Virus record (IMG/VR): IMGVR_UViG_3300027964_000001
Coordinates: 1-46,352 of that record
Strand: one strand, 5' to 3'
DNA length: 46,352 nt
From: a virus
Made by a program: the position numbers and the translations under genes. The notes beneath the pieces are model-generated. The model did not search any database. It saw only the letters and a list, made by a program, of their open reading frames with translations, and had not been told where the DNA came from. Shown one piece after another: positions 2,532 to 46,352 of the stretch (position 1 is its first letter; every line of letters begins with the position of its first letter).

Positions 2532-2765
2532 ATGACCAAACTTAAGTTTAATCCGAACTATAAACAATGGAGAAGAGATTATGAAACTATACCAGTGTAT
2601 ACCAAAAAGGAACATAATGAAGCTCTAGCTAAAGTTAAACAAGAGCTAACTGTAAATAGAGTAGTGCAATCATTCACAGGTTTGTATGGTCCAGATGATT
2701 GTAGAGCTATGCAAATTCTAGCTATACATCAAACTCCTGACGGCTTATTGATTGTAGTTAGATGA
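2532..2765 (+). CDS. Hypothetical protein
   Basis: 77-aa ORF. Its stop overlaps the next start (ATGA at 2762-2765). Confidence 0.65.
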   Translation: MTKLKFNPNYKQWRRDYETIPVYTKKEHNEALAKVKQELTVNRVVQSFTGLYGPDDCRAMQILAIHQTPDGLLIVVR

Positions 2766-3022
2766 TGAACATCAAATCCGAACAAAATTGGGTCCGCAAA
2801 GTTCATTTAATAGCGGAATACCATAAAGCCCAGCAAGCTAAACATCCCAAGAAACGTAATCATGGGATATGGAAACTTGCTGATACCGCTAAAGAACTAG
2901 GATTCTCTACAGGGTATGTTTCGGAATCAATTAAGATATCAGACTACATAGATAAGCATCCAGGGGATTGGACTAAGGTGGATAGAGGAACGGTTTTGGA
3001 GATGATTAGAAATGAAACCTGA
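2762..3022 (+). CDS. Helix-turn-helix DNA-binding protein
   Basis: WKLADTAKELGFSTGYVSESIKI is a ParB/KorB-style HTH. 86 aa, overlap-coupled on both sides. Confidence 0.55.
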   Translation: MMNIKSEQNWVRKVHLIAEYHKAQQAKHPKKRNHGIWKLADTAKELGFSTGYVSESIKISDYIDKHPGDWTKVDRGTVLEMIRNET

Positions 3023-3197
3023 AAATCTTAAGTGCCCCGATTGTGATGGTCCAATGATTCCTAGAACTTCTCAGTATGGTAAGTTTTGGGGATGTAAAAA
3101 CTATCCTAAGTGCAAAGGAACTAGGGATAGTATGGGATTAAGTAAAAGAGAAAAAGAACAATTACAGGATGATTATGATAAAGGAGGATGGACATAG
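3012..3197 (+). CDS. Topoisomerase-type C4 zinc-finger protein (zf-C4_Topoisom-like)
   Basis: CPDCDGPMIPRTSQYGKFWGCKNYPKCKGT matches the CPxC...GxFxGCxxYPxC pattern of the topoisomerase I C-terminal zinc ribbon. Confidence 0.75.
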   Translation: MKPENLKCPDCDGPMIPRTSQYGKFWGCKNYPKCKGTRDSMGLSKREKEQLQDDYDKGGWT

Positions 3198-6100
3198 TGC
3201 AAGGATACGTCCCCGGAGTAGGCCCGAAATCAAAATTAGCTATTATAGGTATAGCTCCAGGCAGCGAAGAAGTCATTAAGGAGAAACCCTTTGTAGGTCC
3301 ATCGGGTTCCATTCTCCGTTCTGATCTTAAAGATGCCGGAATCAACATCGAAGAAACCTATAGGACTAATATATTCAAGTATCAATTACCTAACAATCAA
3401 TTTGAGAAGTATCAAGAAATTGGACTTAACTTACAAGAAGCTTTGGCTGACCTTCAAGAAGAGATTAATACAATCAATCCCAATTGTATCCTTGGTCTTG
3501 GAGATCCAGTATTAAAATCTCTCACTGGTCATAGTGGAATTAATAGCTGGCGTGGGTCGATTCTTTTTGCGCTCGGTAAGAAAGCTGTATTTACTTGGCA
3601 TCCGGCTGCGGAGCTTCATGGTGAGGGAGAAGGACAATGGAAAACATGGCAGCGTTATGTAAGAAAGTTTGATGTTCAAAGGGCTGTAGAAGAAAGTTCT
3701 TATCCTGAACTTGATTTATCCCATCGTAATCTTATCATAGCTAGGTCATATTCAGATGTATTTAGATTCTTTGAACGGAATAAAAATGAATCCTATTGTG
3801 CTTTAGATATTGAAGCTATTGAGAATATTCCGGTTTGTATTGGATTCTCATTTATACCCTCTGAAGCTCTATGTATCCCTCTCTTTAATACTCTTCCAAT
3901 TAAAGTAGATAATAAGAAAAAGTCTTATGAACGTAATGTTGAAATATCTACGATACCGTCTGGAGACCTCGCACTTATTTGGCAAGAAATAGCCAAACTA
4001 TTACTTAACCCTAAAGTTTCCTTCATAGGACAGAACTTCAAATATGATGAGGATAAATTAAACCGGCTTGGGTTTTTCCTACACTCTCTACACTGGGATA
4101 TTATGATAGGAACTCATTGTATCTCTTCGGAGATGCCCAAGTCCCTAGCATATCAGACCTCAATCTATACTAGAGAACCTTACTATAAAGATGAAGGTAA
4201 AGAGCTTAACTTTAAGAAGGAAGGAATAGAACAGTTCTTTCTATATAATTGTAAGGATGCTTGCATTACCCGTGAAATATTTGACGTTCAACAAAAAGAA
4301 CTTAAGGAAATTCCATTTGGTATTCCTCATGCTACATGGAGAATGCAACTTCATAAAGCCTATCTTGATTTAGACCGAGTAGGATTTGCAGTAGATGAAG
4401 AAGAAAGATGGGAACTAATTCATAAGTATGTAGAATGGGGAGTAAGATTAGAGAAAGAATTATTTGATTTAATTGGACATACAGTAAATTTTAGAAGTCC
4501 TAAACAAGTAGCTGAATTACTCTACGAAGAACTAAAAATACCAAAAAGAGCCGGAACCGGAGAACAAGTAATAACCGGACTTTTAGGAAATGTTCTTAAA
4601 CCCGGTAAACATAATACAGAGATACGAATATGTGAAATTATTCTTGAATATAGAAGGGTAGATAAATCATTAGGGTATTTAAAAGCAGCGCCGGATTATG
4701 ATGGAAGGATGAAAACTACATTTAGAATATGTGGAACAGAGAACTACAGAACATCAACTAATATTCTTGATCCTCCTATCAGACCAGAAAAGATGGGATG
4801 GGCAATGCAAACTGTAAGTAAACATGGAGATATTGGGAATGATTTAAGATCTATCCTAGTAGCCGATAGAGGATTTATCATAGTAAATATAGATCAATCG
4901 CAGGCTGAGGCTAGAGTATGTAGTTTATTAGCTGATGATGAAAAAACTCTAAAAGAGTATGACCTTATTGATAAACATGCTCTAACAGCTAGTAAGTTCT
5001 TCGGTGGAGAAGAGAAAGATTACTCTAAGAAAATCCTCGGTTATGAATGTCCTGAAAGATTCGTAGGTAAAGCACAACCTTTAACAGCTAAAATATTAAC
5101 TCCTTCTGGATGGAAGTTAATGAAAGATATTAGGATAGGAGATACTATTTGTAATAGTTACGGTTCAAGTAGTAAAGTTACAGGAGTTTATCCTCAAGAA
5201 AAGAAAGATATTTACGAGGTTGAGTTTTCAGACGGAAGCAAAACTCAGTGCTGTTTAGAACATAATTGGAATGTTCGTAGTCCCGCAGGTGCCTGGAGAG
5301 ATGGTCCTTATGAGATGAGAAGTTTATCTTATATAAAAAATAATCTGAGAAATAATTCAGGAGAACTAACTAAACTAATTCCAATAACCCGAGCTGTTGA
5401 ATTTGAGAAAAATCCTCTTCCTATACATCCATATGTAGTTGGATTACTATTAGGAGACGGAACCTTTAGACAAAAATACTCTTATGGATTTTCATCTGCT
5501 GATATTGAATTAGTTTGGGAATTTGAGAACTTAACAGGAATAAAATTAAGTAAAAGAAATGGTTATGATTATGCTATACCAGCAGAGTATACTAAGAAAA
5601 TAAAAGAATTAGGTGTTCATGGACAATACTCAGAGGATAAGCATATTCCTGAAAATTATAAATTTTCTTGTATAGAAGATAGACTAGCAATTCTTAGGGG
5701 GCTAATGGACACCGATGGAACAGTAAATAAAAGAGGAACAGGAGTCACATTTGATTCTGCCTCCAAACAATTAGCAAAAGATGTAATATTCTTGGTTAAT
5801 TCTTTAGGGGGTATTGCTACATATTCTAATCGGCAAACGAAATTTACTTATAATAATGAGACTCGGCTAGGGATGAAATCCCATAGAGTATTTATATCAA
5901 ATATGCAATATAATCCATTTAATCTAGATAGAAAGTTAAGTAGGTGGAAACAAACTACAGCTTACAGAAGATTTAAAAATATAAAACTTATTTCTAATGA
6001 GGAATGCCAATGTATTTCTGTAAATTCAGGAGATAGACAATATATTACAGATGATTTTATAGTAACCCATAATACTCTTCGCCATGCTTATCATCTTGAT

Positions 6101-6634
6101 ATTGGTAAGCGAGAGGCTATGGTTAATGTTAATACTGATGCTAGAAAGTATAAGATTCGAATTAGAATTTCAGAATGGAAAGCAGGAGAATGTCTAAAAA
6201 TTCTGGCTCAAGATACTCCTAAAATTAAATCAGTATTTCATGAAACAATTCAGAATCTTCTAAGAAAAGATAGGAGAATAGTTGGAACTTATGGTGCGTC
6301 GCGGTATTTTTACGATGACGATGGAACTAGAGATTTATATAAAGGAGCATATTCTTTCATCCCACAGCAAACAGTAAGTGATAAAACTAAACAAGTCCTA
6401 TTGAAGATTAAAAAGAATTTGTGGGATATTAGAGTAGTTGTTGAGACTCATGACGCGCTGACCTTATTAATCCGGGATAATGAGTCTCTGAAGGATAAGA
6501 TACTGGAAATACAGAGTTATTTCTTAGAACCTATTAGCTTTGCAGATTGCTCAATTCCTAGGAGAGATTTGGTGATTCCTTGCGATGTTGAAGTTGGTTA
6601 TAATTATAAGGAGCTTGGGAAATGGAAGGGATGA
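3188..6634 (+). CDS. polA: UDG-like domain :: 3'-5' exonuclease :: family-A DNA polymerase, interrupted by an intein
   Basis: N-terminus has IIGIAPGSEE..KPFVGPSGSIL and WHPAA (UDG family 4/5 type motifs). Exo motifs are CALDIEA, QNFKYDEDK and YNCKDA. Pol motif A is IVNIDQSQAEAR, the O-helix R-FVG-K|T is split by the insert, and motif C is VVETHDAL. 1148 aa in total, 814 aa without the intein. Confidence 0.9.
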   Translation: MDIVQGYVPGVGPKSKLAIIGIAPGSEEVIKEKPFVGPSGSILRSDLKDAGINIEETYRTNIFKYQLPNNQFEKYQEIGLNLQEALADLQEEINTINPNCILGLGDPVLKSLTGHSGINSWRGSILFALGKKAVFTWHPAAELHGEGEGQWKTWQRYVRKFDVQRAVEESSYPELDLSHRNLIIARSYSDVFRFFERNKNESYCALDIEAIENIPVCIGFSFIPSEALCIPLFNTLPIKVDNKKKSYERNVEISTIPSGDLALIWQEIAKLLLNPKVSFIGQNFKYDEDKLNRLGFFLHSLHWDIMIGTHCISSEMPKSLAYQTSIYTREPYYKDEGKELNFKKEGIEQFFLYNCKDACITREIFDVQQKELKEIPFGIPHATWRMQLHKAYLDLDRVGFAVDEEERWELIHKYVEWGVRLEKELFDLIGHTVNFRSPKQVAELLYEELKIPKRAGTGEQVITGLLGNVLKPGKHNTEIRICEIILEYRRVDKSLGYLKAAPDYDGRMKTTFRICGTENYRTSTNILDPPIRPEKMGWAMQTVSKHGDIGNDLRSILVADRGFIIVNIDQSQAEARVCSLLADDEKTLKEYDLIDKHALTASKFFGGEEKDYSKKILGYECPERFVGKAQPLTAKILTPSGWKLMKDIRIGDTICNSYGSSSKVTGVYPQEKKDIYEVEFSDGSKTQCCLEHNWNVRSPAGAWRDGPYEMRSLSYIKNNLRNNSGELTKLIPITRAVEFEKNPLPIHPYVVGLLLGDGTFRQKYSYGFSSADIELVWEFENLTGIKLSKRNGYDYAIPAEYTKKIKELGVHGQYSEDKHIPENYKFSCIEDRLAILRGLMDTDGTVNKRGTGVTFDSASKQLAKDVIFLVNSLGGIATYSNRQTKFTYNNETRLGMKSHRVFISNMQYNPFNLDRKLSRWKQTTAYRRFKNIKLISNEECQCISVNSGDRQYITDDFIVTHNTLRHAYHLDIGKREAMVNVNTDARKYKIRIRISEWKAGECLKILAQDTPKIKSVFHETIQNLLRKDRRIVGTYGASRYFYDDDGTRDLYKGAYSFIPQQTVSDKTKQVLLKIKKNLWDIRVVVETHDALTLLIRDNESLKDKILEIQSYFLEPISFADCSIPRRDLVIPCDVEVGYNYKELGKWKG
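5072..6073 (+). mobile_element. 334-aa intein with LAGLIDADG homing-endonuclease domain inside polA (aa 629-962)
   Basis: Block A is AQPLTAKILTPSGWKLMKDIRIGD (aligns with CLSFGTEILT-type starts, with Ala at position 1). Block B is CLEHNW. LAGLIDADG motifs are VVGLLLGDGTF and ILRGLMDTDGTV. Blocks F/G are CISVNSGDRQYITDDFIVTHN followed by Thr+1. Confidence 0.85.
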
Positions 6635-7018: not shown

Positions 7019-7095
7019 CCCCCAGTAATCCAACTGGCAGAGATAGCTGACTTAAAATCAGTAAAGTGTGAGTTCGAATCTCACCTGGGGGACCA
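7019..7095 (+). tRNA. tRNA, anticodon UAA (decodes UUA/UUG, Leu) with a short variable loop; CCA encoded
   Basis: Acceptor stem 7019-7025 cccccag pairs with 7085-7091 ctggggg. The D arm is atc/gat with GG in the loop. The anticodon stem is gctga/tcagt with loop c-t-TAA-a-a (7051-7057). The variable loop is aaagt. The T arm is gtgag-ttcgaat-ctcac. Discriminator is A, then CCA. Confidence 0.85.
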
Positions 7096-35943: not shown

Positions 35944-36159
35944 TTTGATTCTCCTTAGATTGTTGACTATTGATTAGTGGACTAGTTAGTCGATCTACTA
36001 TTTAGACCAGGACCTATATTTCGATCCCCGATCGCCGAATTAAATTGGTAGAAGGAAATAGAATCTCTGCCTATTTTTGCGGCAAGGCTACCATCATGGC
36101 CCCGTTAATTGATTCATTTTACACTTTGACGGAACACGCAAGAAACCCTCTACCAAACT

Positions 36160-36657
36160 TTAACCAACCTCAATAACCTCATAATCCTCTACCTTCTTTT
36201 GATTAGGTAGATGAAAATGAAGCACAGTGCTAGATCCGTCTTTACTACGTCCGTGAATCTTCTCTACAATCCCAGATAACTTCGATGCGGCATTAACCAG
36301 GTCAATAGGCTTATCAATATCAGCAGGATTAAATAAGTCTAAAGTAGCCATTAACTTAGTGATAGTTTTATCCTCAATTTGATGCCTTACTGATAGGATG
36401 TTCTCTTTAGTCTCTTCCTTTACATCTTTTCCATCTTTGTATTTTGATGCAGAGCTTTGCGGAACCCCATTAATTTTCGCCGCTTCAGAAGCTCCAAGAT
36501 TTATCGCATCATAGGCAACTAGTTCTTTAGTTAATTCGTCTTCCCCTTTATCCCTCTTTCCTACCTCACTATGAATAACTACACCTTTATCCTCACTACC
36601 TACTAAGTCCTCAATCTTGATTTCTTTGATTTCTTCTTCCTCAGAAATTATATTCAT
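36160..36657 (-). CDS. Acidic hypothetical protein
   Basis: 165-aa ORF downstream of the promoter at 36704-36732. Confidence 0.65.
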   Translation of the reverse strand: MNIISEEEEIKEIKIEDLVGSEDKGVVIHSEVGKRDKGEDELTKELVAYDAINLGASEAAKINGVPQSSASKYKDGKDVKEETKENILSVRHQIEDKTITKLMATLDLFNPADIDKPIDLVNAASKLSGIVEKIHGRSKDGSSTVLHFHLPNQKKVEDYEVIEVG

Positions 36658-36703
36658 AAGATTCTATGAAAATTCATTTCTCCCCTACACCGAGGACGAC
36701 TAC

Positions 36704-36732
36704 AGCCTAGCACAGATTTTCCCCTTTGTCAA
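36704..36732 (-). promoter_or_regulatory. Sigma70-type promoter (leftward): TTGACA-N17-TAGGCT
   Basis: The minus strand reads TTGACA (36732-36727), a 17-nt spacer, then TAGGCT (36709-36704), in the 107-nt gap upstream of 36657. Confidence 0.6.
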
Positions 36733-36764
36733 TAGGCTGAAAGTTCACCTAAGAATATTAAGAT

Positions 36765-37313
36765 TTATTTAGCTCCAACTAATTTTAATAATTCTTCCAT
36801 AGTTTTAGGCTTATTAATTTTCTTTTTATCTTCATAAGATTTTCTAGATTTTTCTTTCCAGAAATTAGTAGAGCAATCTTTACAACAAAATTTTTGATTT
36901 AACAAACCTACGAAAGTATTTCCACAATAACAAACCCTCTCAACTTTAATAGTTTCTTTTCTAGGATGATCAATTTCCCAGTGATTAAGCCGGCAAACAT
37001 CACTGCAAAACTTTTTATTACTTCGACCAATAAATTCTTTTTTACAATACAAACATTCTTTTTTGCTGAGAGATGGAAGTTTTTTATTAAACTTTAGTTT
37101 CTTAGGTCTCCCTCTTTTACTTTTCTTTATAGTTTTATTCTCATTATTAAACTCCCACTTTAATTGTAATTTTTTCTGAATTTCAATTCCATGTTCTTCA
37201 CAAAAGAACCCTTCAAATTGCTCCCCTACTAAAACATAGGTTGATAACTTACCACATTCATTTTTATTACAAACTTGCAGGTTTACAGATAATAAAACAT
37301 ACTGAAGATTCAT
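36765..37313 (-). CDS. Multi-zinc-ribbon protein (two CxxC...KFCSxxC repeats), first gene of the leftward arm
   Basis: CLYCKKEFIGRSNKKFCSDVCRLNHW and CYCGNTFVGLLNQKFCCKDCSTNFW, plus an N-terminal CNKNEC...FFCEEH and a basic KKSKRGRPKKLK linker. SD GGAGG 6 nt upstream. Confidence 0.7.
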   Translation of the reverse strand: MNLQYVLLSVNLQVCNKNECGKLSTYVLVGEQFEGFFCEEHGIEIQKKLQLKWEFNNENKTIKKSKRGRPKKLKFNKKLPSLSKKECLYCKKEFIGRSNKKFCSDVCRLNHWEIDHPRKETIKVERVCYCGNTFVGLLNQKFCCKDCSTNFWKEKSRKSYEDKKKINKPKTMEELLKLVGAK

Positions 37314-37369
37314 TCGTCCCCTCCAGGTGACACCAACCGTGTAAATCCTTCCCTATCAGTCACTTACAG

Positions 37370-37402
37370 CCCCTCCCCCTTACCCCTACTTCTACCCCTC
37401 CC
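37370..37402 (-). other. G-quadruplex motif on the leftward (sense) strand
   Basis: Plus-strand C tracts are C4-t-C5-tta-C4-tacttcta-C4-t-C3, i.e. GGG A GGGG TAGAAGTA GGGG TAA GGGGG A GGGG in the leftward transcript 5' leader. Confidence 0.55.
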
Positions 37403-37422
37403 TAAAATACCTTTTGCAACGG

Positions 37423-37451
37423 ATTCTATACACCCTCAACGGATTTGTCAA
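37423..37451 (-). promoter_or_regulatory. Strong sigma70-type promoter for the leftward arm: TTGACA-N17-TAGAAT
   Basis: The minus strand reads TTGACA (37451-37446), a 17-nt spacer, then TAGAAT (37428-37423). Two direct caacggatt repeats (37417-37425, 37437-37445) overlap the -10 and the spacer. Confidence 0.65.
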
Positions 37452-37504
37452 GATATTCCCATACCCTAGCCTACCCCCAATTTTCCGAAATTTCACCTAA
37501 CTTT

Positions 37505-37532
37505 ATTATAGTATCTTTCATATGGGACCCAA
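37505..37532 (-). promoter_or_regulatory. Second, weaker leftward promoter candidate: TTGGGT-N16-TATAAT
   Basis: The minus strand has TATAAT (37510-37505) and TTGGGT (37532-37527). Confidence 0.3.
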
Positions 37533-37677
37533 TATAACAGGATTCCTTTATTTATGGAACCTATTTTTTATTACATTAGAGATAGTTGGATACCTCCGCT
37601 CCAGACGCCCTACTAAATGGGACCCGAGACCTTCCTATGGGTAGGGTATATGACCTATAATATAATTGGTATGATAG

Positions 37678-37705
37678 TTGCAAGTAAAATCAAATGGCAT
37701 AGATT
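37678..37705 (+). promoter_or_regulatory. Rightward promoter candidate: TTGCAA-N16-TAGATT
   Basis: ttgcaa at 37678-37683 and tagatt at 37700-37705. Confidence 0.4.
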
Positions 37706-38015
37706 TTGAATAGGCCGGCGATGGCATAGGTATTGCATATATCTATTGGTATAACAATTGCATGGACCGGAAAGAGAAGGGACATCGAAGGTATCTGATA
37801 GGCAGACTAATCTCAGATAAGTAGACAAAAGTCAACCATCGCAGGACTAGTAGCACTAGATATGGTATGGTTGATAGGGTAGGATACTAGATATGGATGG
37901 CATGGGGGTTGTATATATAACAGAGTAGACAATCTCTCTCCCAGGGGCGAGACATACTAGAATGGCAGGTATTTAACCTATAGTCGGCCGTGGGGGACTG
38001 AACGGAGGTAAAGAT

Positions 38016-38162
38016 ATGAGAATCCCTAGATACTCCCTCTATCAGAAGCGCGATGGTAGATTCTACAGAGTATCACCATACGCTTTCACAATCGTAACTG
38101 CGCTCCACTACTTCTCAGATAGGTTGGCGCAGGACTTGTCACTCATTCTTCGTCGAGTCTAG
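38016..38162 (+). CDS. Small basic protein (48 aa), unlisted in the ORF track; first rightward ORF
   Basis: GGAGG (38004-38008), 7 nt, then ATG. Reads MRIPRYSLYQKRDGRFYRVSPYAFTIVTALHYFSDRLAQDLSLILRRV. Stop TAG at 38160-38162. Confidence 0.55.
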   Translation: MRIPRYSLYQKRDGRFYRVSPYAFTIVTALHYFSDRLAQDLSLILRRV

Positions 38163-38179
38163 TTTAGGTCTAGTTTAGG
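38158..38179. repeat. Perfect tandem duplication of an 11-mer (tctagtttagg x2)
   Basis: 38158-38168 is identical to 38169-38179. Confidence 0.9.
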
Positions 38180-38183
38180 CTGT

Positions 38184-38213
38184 CCCCGAAATAGGACACA
38201 AAAAGTTTCGGGG
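38184..38213. other. 8-bp GC-rich hairpin (ccccgaaa / tttcgggg, 14-nt loop) just upstream of the -35 at 38230
   Basis: Direct complementarity. No U tract on either strand. Confidence 0.6.
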
Positions 38214-38229
38214 CTAGCCTAAAAAAGAC

Positions 38230-38258
38230 TTGACAAGCTCAGAACGGCGTGATAGACT
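38230..38258 (+). promoter_or_regulatory. Strong sigma70-type early promoter: TTGACA-N17-TAGACT
   Basis: ttgaca at 38230-38235, a 17-nt spacer, tagact at 38253-38258. Lies ~40 nt upstream of a consensus SD. Confidence 0.65.
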
Positions 38259-38299
38259 GCTTTTCGTTCGACGCTATTTGACAATTGGAGGACAGATAC

Positions 38300-38824
38300 A
38301 TGAGACTGAAGGGACGCTTTGACGCGGAAGAGAAGGCAGACGAGGTAGTGCGAAAGGAATCTACCCACGACGTAAAGAAAGGGTTTTTCTCAATCAAGGT
38401 CAAGGGAACCGAGCCTGGTAAGTATGCGTATGAGTCTGACGCTGAGCCTTTCGAGTATAAGGAAACAGACTCACTGGTAAACGCGCTCAGGCTCGAAGGC
38501 GCAAACCTTACCGATGATGCCATTAGCTTTATCAACGAAGCTCTGGCAGGTGAGGAAACTGGAAAGGCTGTTAAGGAGGTCATTACCATCTATAATGACC
38601 GAATGAAAGCCGATGCTAAGAGTTCCGCTTATGCCGCTATCGCTAATGAGCATAAGCCTGTAACCGCTGAGTCTATCGAGAATTCTAAGGCCCGTATGGT
38701 CAGAGATTTTATGCGGCAGACCAATTGCGATGCTGAGGTCGCAATCAATAAGCTCCGTGAGTTTGTTCCTAACTTCAAGGATTATACTCTCGCAGAGTTC
38801 CAGGCGAATAAGGGGCGAGTCTAA
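38300..38824 (+). CDS. Early protein of unknown function (174 aa) in a promoter/terminator-insulated, GC-richer cassette
   Basis: GGAGGA (38287-38292), 7 nt, then ATG at 38300 (the ORF track begins at an in-frame TTG, 38285). Codon usage is visibly richer in GCG/GAC/CTC/CGC than the rest of the genome. Confidence 0.8.
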   Translation: MRLKGRFDAEEKADEVVRKESTHDVKKGFFSIKVKGTEPGKYAYESDAEPFEYKETDSLVNALRLEGANLTDDAISFINEALAGEETGKAVKEVITIYNDRMKADAKSSAYAAIANEHKPVTAESIENSKARMVRDFMRQTNCDAEVAINKLREFVPNFKDYTLAEFQANKGRV

Positions 38825-38849
38825 TCATAACCTAATCCGTCCCTGAAAA

Positions 38850-38893
38850 GGTCCTAGGCTGGAATATATCTAGTCTAGGACCTTTTCTATTTT
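38850..38893 (+). terminator. Rho-independent terminator (possibly bidirectional)
   Basis: 11-bp stem: ggtcctaggct (38850-38860) pairs with agtctaggacc (38872-38882), one G-U. It is followed by ttttctatttt and preceded by aaaa. Confidence 0.8.
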
Positions 38894-38895
38894 AT

Positions 38896-39303
38896 ATGAC
38901 TACAAAAGACATAGCTTGGACTGCTGGATTCTACGAGGGAGAAGGTTGGATAGGTCGAGTAGGTAAAAATAATAAATACCTCCGTATATCTATCAGCCAA
39001 AAACAGAAATGGCCCTTAGAAAAGCTCCAATATTTGTTCGGTGGAGCAATCTACAAGGCTAAAAATAATACCGGTGGTTTCTTTATGTGGACTCTCACCA
39101 ATGATACTACCATATTAGGTTTTATCCTTACCATTTACTGTTTTCTTTCCCCAGGTAAAAAGCTACAAGCAATGAAAGCATTATCATTAGATGAAACGCC
39201 GATGAAATTGGTATGGATTCAGGCACAGATTGACCTCGAATTGATTGCAATCTGGTTAGGGCCAGCCGAGGCTAACCCCTTGTCGTTCCTAGACTTAGAC
39301 TGA
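38896..39303 (+). CDS. Free-standing single-motif LAGLIDADG homing-endonuclease-like protein
   Basis: IAWTAGFYEGEGWIGRVGKNNKYLRISISQKQKWPLEKLQYLFGGAIY matches LAGFxDGEGsi...l.i.Q....L..i...fG.G.i. No SD. Starts 3 nt after the terminator U tract. Confidence 0.65.
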   Translation: MTTKDIAWTAGFYEGEGWIGRVGKNNKYLRISISQKQKWPLEKLQYLFGGAIYKAKNNTGGFFMWTLTNDTTILGFILTIYCFLSPGKKLQAMKALSLDETPMKLVWIQAQIDLELIAIWLGPAEANPLSFLDLD

Positions 39304-39318
39304 CCCCTCCCCCTCCCC

Positions 39319-39359
39319 GGGGGGTTCAATGGGGGGGTATGGTAGGGGGTAGGTAGGGG
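39319..39359 (+). other. Canonical G-quadruplex motif (G6-N6-G7-N7-G5-N6-G4) preceded by a C4TC5TC4 tract
   Basis: G runs lie at 39319-39324, 39331-39337, 39345-39349 and 39356-39359. The C-rich tract is 39304-39318. Confidence 0.6.
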
Positions 39360-39382
39360 TAGTATAGTAGTAGTGTTATTCT

Positions 39383-39403
39383 ATTATTATTATCATTATT
39401 ATT
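39383..39403. repeat. (ATT)3-ATC-(ATT)3 microsatellite inside a ~55-nt nearly G/C-free tract
   Basis: attattattatcattattatt read directly. The surrounding 39361-39415 is TA(G/C)-poor. Confidence 0.85.
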
Positions 39404-39459
39404 ACTAACTACACTACCTACTGTCCTATCCAGATGACACTGTCCTCTACTAGGGACAC

Positions 39460-39489
39460 TTGACTAGGGTCGGGTAGGTGTGGTAGGAT
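39460..39489 (+). promoter_or_regulatory. Rightward promoter candidate: TTGACT-N18-TAGGAT
   Basis: ttgact at 39460-39465 and taggat at 39484-39489. Followed by a ~150-nt GC-rich leader before the ATG at 39646. Confidence 0.45.
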
Positions 39490-39645
39490 ATGGGGATAGA
39501 GGGAGGGGATTGGCTAAGTGGTGCAGGTTCAAGAGTTTAGGGTCGATCGGGCGAGGCCGAATCAGGACCGGGCCGGGGCCAAATCAGGGTCAGACCTAGC
39601 ACGGATGGCTGATAGCTTCACGGGATTATCAAAGGATTAATCATC

Positions 39646-39882
39646 ATGGCATACAAATTAGAGTATTGGGCCGATGATAACAGTATCGGACAAATTCAGC
39701 TTAAGTCCGTTAGACTGCACTCAATTGAAGAGGCATATCCCTTAAGTCTAGAGCATAACAGGCCTAAAGATTGTGTAATGGTCACAGTTAGACGGACTGA
39801 CAAGCAATCTCCTAATGAAAAGCTGATTTGGATTAAGCCTGGATATGTAGACCCTTGCTTACTTGGAAGTGAAGATATTTGA
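39646..39882 (+). CDS. Hypothetical early protein
   Basis: 78-aa ORF. Confidence 0.65.
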   Translation: MAYKLEYWADDNSIGQIQLKSVRLHSIEEAYPLSLEHNRPKDCVMVTVRRTDKQSPNEKLIWIKPGYVDPCLLGSEDI

Positions 39883-39934
39883 ATAAAGCTCATAAGGGTT
39901 TTATTGAGGTATCCTAAAATTAGAGGTTTAGAAT

Positions 39935-40642
39935 TTGGACAAGTATTGCCAGTCCTGCATAGAGCGTTATAAGATTACTAAGCCGGCGACGCGGCAATGG
40001 GCGGAGAACTATTATATTTGTGATGAGTGTTTCCAACCTCTCATAAATAATGTTCTAGGAATACCTACAGATTCTGACATCGCCTCAAAACCTCTAGATA
40101 AAGAATCTCCTATGGTAAATCAACTATATGATTTACTAGAGGTTCCACAGCATCTTAGAACCTACAATCAGGATAAGTTCCTAAAGGTTTATACAGACCT
40201 ATTCAACTATCAGTCTACCATGATTGCTAACTTGGAGCTTAAGGACCTAGTTAGCAAGCTTGAAGAATATCGGCTAATGTTTTCGGTTATCAAAAAGGGA
40301 TACGTGGAAGCCTATGTATCCAAGATTGATTCTCTGAAAAGAGAAGCCAGAGCGCAAGCTGGATTGGCTGGAGAAGAAAAGAGTAGGAAAGAACATAGTA
40401 AAGTTAAGCCTAGCAATGTCAAACTTTCTCAGCAGGAATCTTTAGCAAAGAGACTGGGTATTTCTGTTGAGCAATTAGAAGCGGCCTCAAAGTTTGCTAA
40501 GGTTGAACAGACTGCAAAGAATGAGGAATCATTTAATACCATGATTGGTAAAGATGATGGACAATGTAGAAAAGCCTATATTAAAGATGGGAAGCCTATC
40601 ATTTGTAGATTGAGTAAGGGGCATGAGGGAGAACATAACTAG
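39935..40642 (+). CDS. Zinc-ribbon / coiled-coil protein (TTG start per ORF track)
   Basis: N-terminus has CQSC...CDEC. The centre is a charged coiled coil. C-terminus has C..(x14)..C....H...H. Confidence 0.6.
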   Translation: MDKYCQSCIERYKITKPATRQWAENYYICDECFQPLINNVLGIPTDSDIASKPLDKESPMVNQLYDLLEVPQHLRTYNQDKFLKVYTDLFNYQSTMIANLELKDLVSKLEEYRLMFSVIKKGYVEAYVSKIDSLKREARAQAGLAGEEKSRKEHSKVKPSNVKLSQQESLAKRLGISVEQLEAASKFAKVEQTAKNEESFNTMIGKDDGQCRKAYIKDGKPIICRLSKGHEGEHN

Positions 40643-43409: not shown

Positions 43410-43622
43410 ATGGAAGAAAATAAATACTATAGGGTTTATCGTATTTTTACTAAAACTCATAAAGAATCTAGATGGTTTGTTTATGCTGACTATGGTCAGG
43501 ATAAGGAGGGAGCACTAGAAAAAATAAAGGTCCTACTTGCTGAGCCTCATGGACCTTATGGAGTAATGCTACAAACTGTAGATATAACGGAAGAGATTTG
43601 TAACGAGAGAGAATATTACTAA
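43410..43622 (+). CDS. Hypothetical protein
   Basis: 70-aa ORF with SD AGGAAGG upstream. Confidence 0.6.
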   Translation: MEENKYYRVYRIFTKTHKESRWFVYADYGQDKEGALEKIKVLLAEPHGPYGVMLQTVDITEEICNEREYY

Positions 43623-43834
43623 TGATTAGACAAAAACCGGTTAAAGGTGGTAGGTCATATCTATCTGGAGCTTTTATCAAGTCTATTGATAGAGAAATTA
43701 ATCGTCAAGCCAAGATGTTCAACGTCTCTAGGTCATTTGTTATTGCAACAGCGGTAGCAGATTCTCTAGGAGTTAAAGACCAAGAAGATTATAAGACTAG
43801 GGATAATATTAAGAGATTTAGGAGAAGGGCATAA
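43622..43834 (+). CDS. Ribbon-helix-helix (CopG/Arc-like) DNA-binding protein
   Basis: GAFIKSIDREINRQAKMFNVSRSFVIATAVADSLG fits a beta-strand plus helix-helix RHH pattern. Confidence 0.5.
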   Translation: MIRQKPVKGGRSYLSGAFIKSIDREINRQAKMFNVSRSFVIATAVADSLGVKDQEDYKTRDNIKRFRRRA

Positions 43835-45566: not shown

Positions 45567-46352
45567 TGATTACCATCACCCTAGACTCCCAAGTCCTATC
45601 AACCTTTATGTCCTGTCCCCGGAAGATGGACTATACCTTTAATAGACATCTTAAATCTATTTCTGGTCCATCTTCATCTTTACTTAAAGGTTTACTATCT
45701 CATGATGGATTACATGGATATTGGAAAGCCAGGATAGATGGTAATGATTATCAAGAATCTTCCCGTATAGGTCTTGAATATGCTAAGCAGAAAGCTAATG
45801 AATATCCAGACTTAGACCCTGAAGACGGACTAATGGTATTCAAGAATCTAGTTGAATACTATAAGTTTACAGCTTCGCTTAATTGGATTCCCCTATTCAC
45901 AGAACAAATATTTAAGTTTGTTGTGTATGAAGATTCAGTTCTGAACTACCGTATTGTCCTCACTGGCCGGATTGATTTAGGTATCAAGACTCCCCAACTT
46001 TCTATTCTACCTATCGACCATAAGTCAGAATCCGAGAGATGGTTTTACTCTGTAATGAGTAATCAGTTTAAAATCTACGCGATCGCCTGTAAAACTAATC
46101 TTTTAGGAGTTCAGAGATTCGGATTCCAGAAAACTAGGAGTCCGGAGGAAAGATTTAAGCTAGAACTTCTTTCATTTGATTCTGATCTTCTTGATGAGTT
46201 TAAGAATGTAACTCTACCATACTATGCTAAGCAGATGATGATTTGTCAGGAATCAGGTTATTACCCTCCTAATAATACAGCGTGTGTGCAAGGGCATTTT
46301 AAGTGTCCATTCAGTGATGCTTATAATAATGGGGGGATTTGTGGGGTTAGTA
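45566..46352 (+). CDS. Cas4-like PD-(D/E)XK exonuclease (N-terminal 262 codons; continues in 128-198 of the window after the overlap)
   Basis: TAATG coupling at 45564-45568. N-terminal Cys (FMSCPRK). Motifs GRIDLG, PIDHKSE (D-x-K) and NQFKIYAIA (QxxxY). The C-terminal Cys cluster lies after the junction. Confidence 0.8.
   Translation, partial: MITITLDSQVLSTFMSCPRKMDYTFNRHLKSISGPSSSLLKGLLSHDGLHGYWKARIDGNDYQESSRIGLEYAKQKANEYPDLDPEDGLMVFKNLVEYYKFTASLNWIPLFTEQIFKFVVYEDSVLNYRIVLTGRIDLGIKTPQLSILPIDHKSESERWFYSVMSNQFKIYAIACKTNLLGVQRFGFQKTRSPEERFKLELLSFDSDLLDEFKNVTLPYYAKQMMICQESGYYPPNNTACVQGHFKCPFSDAYNNGGICGVS
46226..46352. repeat. Terminal assembly overlap, copy 2 (identical to 1-127)
   Basis: Exact 127/127 identity with the window start. 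Confidence 0.97.

Follow-up and report, generated by a model that had tools for sequence, protein, structure and literature searches.

Introduction

Among described systems, the closest to the locus analyzed here are the sigma-54 promoters of Salmonella and E. coli, Pseudomonas phage YuA, the PL/PR-type regions of phage lambda, and iteron origins. Sigma-54 is rarely used by phages and, to our knowledge, sigma-54-dependent phage transcription is almost unexplored beyond isolated reports such as that on YuA. YuA stands as a precedent for phage use of sigma-54 (PMC10914365). The present analysis concerns the genome of an uncultured phage (IMG/VR record IMGVR_UViG_3300027964_000001, positions 1 to 46,352; this whole stretch of 46,352 nt is called the window) and, within it, an island at 37314-38299 that is the exact point where the two arms of the genome diverge. 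The initial annotation described a divergent control island with TTGACA-type promoters and repeated motifs serving both arms, a description that comparison with relatives supports: judged from its conservation, the island is a real compound control region that the family shares. What that annotation missed is a conserved 48-aa gene, a consensus of sigma-54 type in the repeats, and a lineage-specific insertion (~37650-37775).

Results

Several of the elements first listed for the island are parts of one motif: the 'atggcatag' repeats, like the hexamers TTGCAA and TAGATT, come from the two halves of a 16-nt repeat unit, TGG(C/T)AT-N5-TTG(C/A/T)A, which we designate boxes a to e (Table 1). On both strands of the 46 kb, perfect matches to TGGYAY-N5-TTGCW are limited to boxes a, c and d, all three on the plus strand within 96 nt. 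The doublets that define a sigma-54 site (GG at -24 and GC at -12, 10 nt apart) are perfect in boxes a, c and d, while boxes b and e deviate at -12; the -12 variants TTGTA and TTGAA are present in the bound Salmonella promoters pspA, pspG and STM0649.S (PMC3844500). To score the boxes we used a position-specific scoring matrix (PSSM) trained on 29 experimentally bound Salmonella intergenic sites (PMC3844500). Under this matrix the five top-scoring places in the genome are boxes a to e, which all lie within 250 nt on the plus strand. Their scores of 12.9-17.1 compare with a leave-one-out range of 14.1-22.6 for the training sites and with a mean top score of 14.3 in shuffled genomes.

Other readings of short motifs were tried and rejected. 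The string ATGGCATAG, taken as a mini open reading frame (ORF; Met-Ala-stop), has no Shine-Dalgarno (SD) sequence and is a by-product of the box; ATGCTA, taken as a T4 MotA box, has the wrong spacing to any -10; and for 'TATAGGG'-like motifs in relatives, taken as sites of a phage RNA polymerase, no RNA polymerase domain was found in the large ORFs.

Relatives for comparison were found via homologues of two flanking proteins: L011 (66-77% protein identity to the window), L031-L035 (~54%), L022 (~53%), L014, L016, L015, L017, L018 and L021. The gap at the arm junction measures ~0.8-1.6 kb in the window, L011, L031-L035, L022 and two further contigs (P0004, P0021), and only ~400 bp in L015, L017, L018 and L021, the short-gap relatives. 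Motif comparisons cover all of these except the contigs of P0004 and P0021, the two longest-gap relatives.

Box e has positional homologues in L011 (9163, TGGCATGAAGGATGCT) and in L031/L035 (TGGCACGAGG(G/A)ATGCT), where the box stands 33 nt before an SD-led ATG, the expected distance. L022 carries three consensus boxes, TGGCACGAACTATGCA, TGGCACGAATTATGCT and TGGCATGATTTTTGCA; these, like the boxes of L011 and L031, fit the consensus with (A/T)TGC, and the best or near-best PSSM matches of L011, L022 and L031/L035 also fall in their islands. Consensus sites number 8 in 6.8 kb of islands versus 2 in 103 kb outside. From site to site, the doublets GG and GC stay fixed at exactly 10 nt from each other and the 5-nt spacer is free (GATAG, AGGTA, AACAA, GAAGG, GAGGG, GAACT, GAATT and GATTT were seen). 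Fixed doublets around a free spacer are the signature of a bipartite sigma-54 site, unlike a uniformly conserved iteron. Arrays are formed in either orientation, with five boxes in the window phage and three or four in L022. The short-gap relatives are without the boxes, the enhancer-like module described below and the small-gene cassette, all three together. By its position in the alignments, box e, which lies ~100 nt before the 48-aa gene, is the predicted ancestral box, and boxes a-d are lineage-specific.

The enhancer-like module precedes box e, and likewise the box e homologues of L011, L031 and L035, at an upstream distance of ~60-120 nt that overlaps the usual enhancer range of 80-150 bp; no known activator site was recognised in it. 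Its 15-mer CAGACTAATCTCAGA is invariant in the alignment of the window, L011, L031 and L034, in which neighbouring proteins are only 50-66% identical. The block also occurs in L035, and its conservation is above that of the neighbouring proteins. The module further contains a GACTA..(T/A)AGTC dyad and an inverted repeat at 37832-37874. Between module and box, an IHF-like AGTCAA-N4-TTG in L011 and L031 is too degenerate to count.

Two more sets of motifs are kept among the relatives. The T/A-rich tract and element X (GTTGGATACCTCCGC...GGGTATAT) can be recognised in all lineages, also in those where the gap is only 400 bp. The ATGG(G/A)ACC boxes have a nearly palindromic core, GGGACCC, and three of the six matches in the genome lie within 100 nt on one strand; the form ATGGGACCC occurs twice each in the L022 and L031 islands, oriented as in the window, and the rest of those loci is without it. 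We regard the T/A-rich tract, element X and the ATGGGACCC boxes as candidate conserved protein-binding or DNA-structural elements.

Comparison with the relatives also shows that a predicted small cassette lies upstream of the rightward promoter; it contains the 48-aa gene, is preceded by the sigma-54-type boxes and is closed by a conserved stem-loop. Homologues of the 48-aa gene occur in L011 (9548-9700), L014 (~1590-1748) and L016 (27-173), with 77% DNA identity to L011; the protein gave no family match. The island had been called the only large non-coding stretch of the genome, which holds for 37314-38015 (702 nt, the longest gene-free stretch of the genome when genes are assigned by arm) and fails for the whole, since 38016-38162 is this conserved, SD-led ORF. 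The tandem 11-mer GTCTAGTTTAG at its end is a duplication specific to the window, because L011 and L016 have a single copy.

The stem-loop at 38178-38219 is structurally conserved: across the window, L011 and L016, 95% of cells are paired and 6 of the 14 pairs are changed on both sides, against 0 in slid controls. A hairpin noticed at first at 38184-38213 sits within it; a second one, at 37790-37817, is not kept in relatives. The stem-loop is followed by CTAAAAAAGAC, and because no U-tract follows, it fails the definition of an intrinsic terminator; the terminator scanner called 38845-38887 and not the stem-loop. From its placement and conservation, it is the predicted mark of the end of the upstream cassette. 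In or beside the stem-loop, an inverted repeat TGTCC-N9-GGACA (window 38183-38202) keeps a constant spacing in the window, L011, L016 and L031, and could be a protein site or a pairing alternative to the long stem.

The island also contains two face-away promoters of sigma-70 type that were already proposed in the initial annotation and are the two best promoter-like sites in 36000-40000: TTGACA-N17-TAGAAT leftward (11/12, the best) and TTGACA-N17-TAGACT rightward (10/12 with an extended TGn). In both, element spacing and placement upstream of a gene are those of a sigma-70-type promoter. The whole genome has four perfect TTGACA-N16-18-TANNNT sites, three of them at 36704-38258, each upstream of a gene in the correct orientation. 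By sequence and comparison, the leftward predicted promoter serves an inserted 182-aa gene; the rightward one serves a 174-aa gene, which is the first conserved gene in the right arm.

The spacer and -10 of the leftward promoter are overlain by two direct repeats of AATCCGTTG, at 37417-37425 and 37437-37445 in plus-strand coordinates. The 182-aa gene and this promoter are absent from L011, L031, L015, L017 and L018 and are lineage-specific; the ORF looks like an inserted, possibly mobile gene that carried its own promoter into the island. The same CxxC-rich ORF (36765-37313, minus strand) has a weak match to an HNH-endonuclease PHROG. The family's leftward promoter is a different one (window 36732-36704), its position being kept in L011, L031 and L022. 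The rightward promoter keeps its position in L011, L016, L014, L031, L015, L017, L018 and L021. The elements AAAAAAGACTTGACA and -10 are kept in L011 and L016, which share with the window the form AAAAAAGAC-TTGACA-N17-TGnTA(G/C)ACT. The 5' untranslated region that follows contains a conserved TTTGACAA and an SD, GGAGG, at 38287-38291, ahead of the ATG of the 174-aa gene at 38300.

Two further sites, TTGCAA-N16-TAGATT and TTGTCA-N18-TAGTTT, fall under the 9/12 threshold and are not kept in relatives; two of the four promoters proposed in the island are artefacts, the hexamers of the first belonging to the -12 and -24 halves of the sigma-54-type boxes. The proposed 'TAGNNT family', with G at the third position of the -10, dissolves in the same comparison: homologous promoters carry TAGACT, TACACT, TATAAT, TAAGCT and TACAAT.

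Another set of short boxes, (T)ATGAGAC(TC), was seen in both orientations in the short-gap relatives (L015 1466-1660, L017 848-1075, L018 4748-4950) and in L031 (~2215, reverse complement), and is likely an operator set. One of these boxes overlaps the -10 of the rightward promoter (tatGAGACaat); the window is without them.

Table 1. Coordinates of the arms and of the island features in the window
Feature	Position	Strand	Remarks
Structural and lysis arm	9808-37313	minus	terminase, SU10-type adaptor, M15 peptidase endolysin, beta-helix protein
G-tract-rich 5' untranslated region (plus-strand C-rich)	37362..37400	minus	read directly; C-rich tracts at same relative place in L011 and L031
Leftward promoter TTGACA-N17-TAGAAT	37451-37423	minus	predicted to serve 182-aa CxxC-rich ORF (36765-37313)
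Three ATGG(G/A)ACC boxes	37522, 37554, 37617 (span 37522..37625)	plus	AT-rich -10-like hexamer before each
T/A-rich tract, then element X (GTTGGATACCTCCGCTCC ... CTATGGGTAGGGTATAT)	37540..37650	plus	75% identical to L011 8934-9031
Insertion (~125 nt) with four tandem sigma-54-type boxes a-d	37650..37775	plus	~12 nt in its place in L011
Box a TGGTATGATAGTTGCA	37667-37682	plus	PSSM 13.8
Box b TGGCATAGATTTTGAA	37695-37710	plus	PSSM 14.6; TTGAA at -12
Box c TGGCATAGGTATTGCA	37722-37737	plus	PSSM 17.1
Box d TGGTATAACAATTGCA	37747-37762	plus	PSSM 12.9
Enhancer-like module	37803..37885	plus	CAGACTAATCTCAGA (37803-37817), AGTCAAC (37830-37836), ACTAGATATGGTA (37855-37867)
Box e TGGCATGGGGGTTGTA	37898-37913	plus	PSSM 14.6, tied second in genome; TGT for TGC at -12
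48-aa gene (MRIPRYSLYQKRDGRFYRVSPYAF...)	38016..38162	plus	SD GGAGG 38004-38008
Perfect tandem 11-mer GTCTAGTTTAG x2	38157..38178	plus	overlaps stop codon of 48-aa gene
Stem-loop, 14-bp stem	38178..38219	plus	GGACA in loop; directly upstream of rightward sigma-70-type promoter
A-tract TAAAAAAGAC, then TTGACA (38230-38235)-N17-TGaTAGACT (38250-38258), then 5' untranslated region	38220..38299	plus	
Second arm	38300 over junction to 9811	plus	SNF2/SprT helicase, Sak4-like protein, UDG-PolA, primase/helicase

Several broader descriptions of the island needed adjustment. No ORF of at least 60 aa lies in 37314-38238, as first observed. The island is indeed GC-richer (43.6% in 37314-38299 versus 37.0% for the genome), but the rise is not specific to it and persists through 38300-40000: the 174-aa gene to its right has 48.2% GC, and the next ~2 kb is mostly coding and GC-raised. 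The tetranucleotide CTAG is in no excess, with 9 observed versus 8.7 expected from a Markov model and up to 12 in other segments. The short repeats are all present where they were reported, but their overall number does not distinguish the island: it has 14 repeated 9- to 11-mers versus 2.8 in shuffles, and because 19% of equal-sized segments of the genome have as many, the count is by itself no evidence. Two of the motifs, 'atggcatag' and 'atgggaccc', go beyond chance in being same-strand, clustered and kept in relatives.

The genome itself is a complete, circular assembly of ~46.35 kb in which the window end repeats the window start, and the JGI, ENA and Logan assemblies hold contigs identical to it. 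The stretch 46250-46352 duplicates 1-100, and the same peptide is read twice over the junction: the contig is circular and its ends overlap in the assembly. Because an ORF reads across this junction, 45567-46352 is coding, and the 786-nt gap that the window end seems to show does not count as a second large one. The DNA polymerase (3188-6634, plus strand) fuses a uracil-DNA-glycosylase domain with a 3'-5' exonuclease and a family A polymerase and is split by a LAGLIDADG intein-like insert at residues ~820-905. A tRNA at 7019-7095 (plus strand), called Leu (anticodon TAA), has 77 nt and is without the long variable arm usual in bacterial tRNA-Leu. The endolysin type resembles that of phages of Gram-negative hosts, which suggests a Gram-negative host for the phage.

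Database searches placed this family apart. Cultured phages gave no DNA match to the island and no capsid or portal match to the window phage, and GTDB genomes, searched by protein family and conserved module, gave no prophage or host match. Searches of IMG/VR with the 174-aa protein, a family alignment, and 22-mer and 17-mer DNA patterns returned nothing or chance matches in unrelated high-GC coding DNA, and a gapped DNA pattern found one further contig only, of the L031 lineage. More ORF-free stretches (~450-570 nt) lie upstream of the first rightward gene in L022 (930-1500, reverse complement) and L014 (1-437); they have only short blocks in common (for example ATGGCCGTATTCGAGCC) and no Rfam match, and the IMG/VR matches to the 17-mer ATGGCCGTATTCGAGCC are chance ones in unrelated coding DNA.

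Further non-coding features occur to the right of the island. Matches to the Pistol ribozyme (RF02679) above the gathering threshold were found in L016 (1037-1092, plus strand) and L021 (4811-4866, minus strand), with 45.8 and 42 bits, directly downstream of the homologue of the 174-aa gene. At this place the window has no Pistol match and carries a canonical terminator hairpin (38845-38887) and a free-standing LAGLIDADG endonuclease gene (38896-39303). A second non-coding gap follows at 39304-39645 (342 nt, 51% GC), with C-runs and then G-runs (cccctccccctcccc gggggg ... ggggggg ... ggggg ... gggg) that may form a hairpin or G-quadruplex, then a long A/T-rich imperfect hairpin at 39341-39453 and TTGACT-N18-TAGGAT at 39460-39489. 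The minus strand of 37362-37400 carries similar G-tracts, as do L011 and L031 at the corresponding place.

Discussion

How might these parts work together? We propose, with confidence evenly divided for and against, that the island is a composite control region in which sigma-54-type promoters and an enhancer would feed a small accessory-gene cassette. Host sigma-54 RNA polymerase would bind the boxes, and an enhancer-binding activator, most likely from the host because the phage encodes none, would bind the upstream module. Polymerase and activator would then switch on the variable small-gene cassette (one 48-aa gene here; in L011, genes of 122, 50 and 53 aa; in L031, one of 66 aa with further small ORFs) without involving the constitutive-looking sigma-70 promoter that serves the 174-aa gene, and the stem-loop would end or stabilise the cassette transcript. 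The broader suggestion that the island controls the early/late switch of both arms is not supported, and the helix-turn-helix (2762-3022) and ribbon-helix-helix (43622-43834) proteins named with it have no Pfam, PHROG or NCBIfam support.

A number of observations weigh against the sigma-54 proposal. The window encodes no AAA+ enhancer-binding protein: its six frames contain no GAFTGA-like motif, and the only Walker A motif is that of the Sak4-like protein. A host without rpoN would defeat the proposal altogether; the nearest matches of PolA include a Microcystis phage (27% identity), and cyanobacteria and actinobacteria are mostly without rpoN (PMC12316311). A single PSSM score of 14-17 arises by chance in shuffled genomes and, because single scores can be reached in this way, the case rests on clustering and on co-location across lineages; local duplication gave rise to the cluster in the window. 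At 25-28 nt from one another, boxes a-d are spaced too tightly to be independent promoters; the putative enhancer lies downstream of them, and the nearest ORF is ~250-350 nt away. Box e has a T in place of the near-invariant C at -12, and the three best boxes of L022 face the other way, toward the structural arm.

It is also conceivable, though in our estimate unlikely, that the TGGCAY-N5-TTGCW boxes, and perhaps the ATGGGACCC boxes, are iterons or operators of a phage protein; the island would then be an origin or a repressor switch and the likeness to sigma-54 sites a coincidence. The direct repeats, 25-28 nt apart, adjoin a T/A-rich tract kept in all relatives, box copy number and orientation differ between lineages, as those of iterons may, a phage-encoded primase/helicase-type protein (DUF3987, PHROG DNA primase) could recognise an origin, and no phage-encoded sigma-54 activator was found. 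The cumulative GC skew has its minimum at ~37000-37500 as well, but this switch is uninformative because it coincides with the switch in gene orientation. Compared with the definition of an iteron array, the island has four or five direct boxes beside a T/A-rich tract, but the spacers within the boxes are unconserved. In iterons, conservation usually extends over the full length and changes go together with those of the initiator, whereas the positions kept here over four lineages are the exact sigma-54 contact positions. Moreover, the short-gap relatives keep the T/A-rich tract and element X without the boxes, so that an origin would not need them, and the replication genes lie 3-17 kb away, with no initiator gene adjacent to the island.

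A variant that retains sigma-54 binding, and that we consider improbable, is that the tandem boxes are not (or not only) promoters and would form an array, carried by the phage, to which the host sigma-54 holoenzyme binds with high affinity; such an array would titrate scarce sigma-54 or couple the cassette to a stress-sensing enhancer-binding protein of the host. Sigma-54 holoenzyme forms stable closed complexes without an activator, and an array multiplied by replication could blunt sigma-54-dependent stress responses of the host, for example the phage-shock or RNA-repair operons. The arrays of the window phage and L022 would, on this account, have been amplified independently.

We attach equally little weight to the possibility that, beyond the two sigma-70 promoters and the 48-aa gene, the island is mostly debris of mobile small-gene insertion and deletion, with no collective function. 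Relatives differ in gap length (~400 to 1600 bp), lineage-specific insertion accounts for the 182-aa HNH-like gene, the LAGLIDADG gene and the 125-nt segment, and overall repeat density is unexceptional for the genome. Debris would nonetheless hardly be expected to contain an invariant 15-mer and other blocks that outdo the neighbouring proteins in conservation, or motifs that recur on the same strand in lineages with only ~50% protein identity.

The initial annotation also saw room for a non-coding RNA of about 300 nt, and it is very unlikely that ~37586-38015 is a structured RNA or a long regulatory 5' leader, in which CCUCCG (37593-37598), by pairing with CGGAGG (38003-38008), would mask the SD of the 48-aa gene and so govern its translation. 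Minimum-free-energy and centroid folds both close the region (37591-37598 with 38003-38010), the CCTCCG/CGGAGG pair is also found in L011, and every conserved block and motif is on the same strand. In L011, however, the sequence that pairs with CCTCCG is neither positionally homologous nor an SD, and a 125-nt indel falls in the middle of the region. The folding z-score of 37580-38015 is weak (-2.0 on the plus and -1.2 on the minus strand; -0.5 for the L011 core), and RNAalifold found no supported consensus fold for element X (7 lineages) and neither covariation nor a supported structure for the module (4 sequences). The islands of the window and eight relatives have no Rfam match even at E up to 10; in a search of the window with Rfam 15, only the tRNA reaches the gathering score, and 36600-39700 gives sub-threshold microRNA-like and CRISPR-repeat-like chance matches. 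The conserved module, finally, lies upstream of the sole conserved promoter-like box.

Although the island is the largest non-coding stretch, repeat-rich and placed at the arm junction, and the assemblies are circular or permuted, it is extremely improbable that it represents the physical genome ends (a terminal repeat or packaging site with end arrays as in T7-type terminal repeats), since no contig of the phage or its relatives stops there, contig ends fall at varied places elsewhere, the terminase gene is 6 kb away, and nothing end-specific was found.

The comparison tells the real parts of the island apart from repeats that are due to chance; these parts are two promoters, a small gene, a structured stem-loop and three sets of conserved motifs. 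An uncultured phage family appears to carry conserved sigma-54-type boxes and an enhancer-like module at its central control region. If the sigma-54 proposal is true, phages can wire genes to, or interfere with, the activator-gated, signal-dependent transcription of the host; if a phage protein binds the boxes instead, the arm junction would hold a new operator or iteron system.

Each of the known systems shares some of these features. Like iteron origins (lambda ori, P4 ori/crr), the island has same-strand repeats beside an A/T-rich tract in a genome with a primase-helicase-type gene; unlike them, it is neither inside nor beside an initiator gene, its spacing is irregular, the spacer within its repeats is unconserved, and close relatives have the A/T-rich tract without the repeats. 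As in lambda PL/PR-type regions, back-to-back sigma-70 promoters stand at the junction of oppositely transcribed arms, with short boxes on promoter elements (AATCCGTTG twice; ATGGGACCC beside -10-like hexamers), but no repressor, Cro or helix-turn-helix gene is identifiable next to them, and the island is far longer, with a gene cassette and sigma-54-type boxes. YuA, like the window phage, has a genome of lytic type with both sigma-70-like and sigma-54-like promoters (PMC10914365); there is no sequence relationship between the two, the YuA promoters are experimental and those of the window predicted, and the part of the YuA account considered here does not describe tandem arrays. The sigma-54 promoters of Salmonella and E. 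coli (pspA, pspG, hypA, glnAp2) differ from the island in that it has up to five tandem boxes at 25-28 nt, four of them upstream of the putative enhancer, is phage-borne without an activator gene, and is reversed in orientation in one lineage. The island nevertheless has in common with these promoters the form TGGCA(C/T)-N5-(T/A)TGC(A/T), with GG and GC exactly 10 nt apart, a dyad-bearing, enhancer-like module upstream of the predicted ancestral box and, in L031, an SD-led gene at the normal distance.

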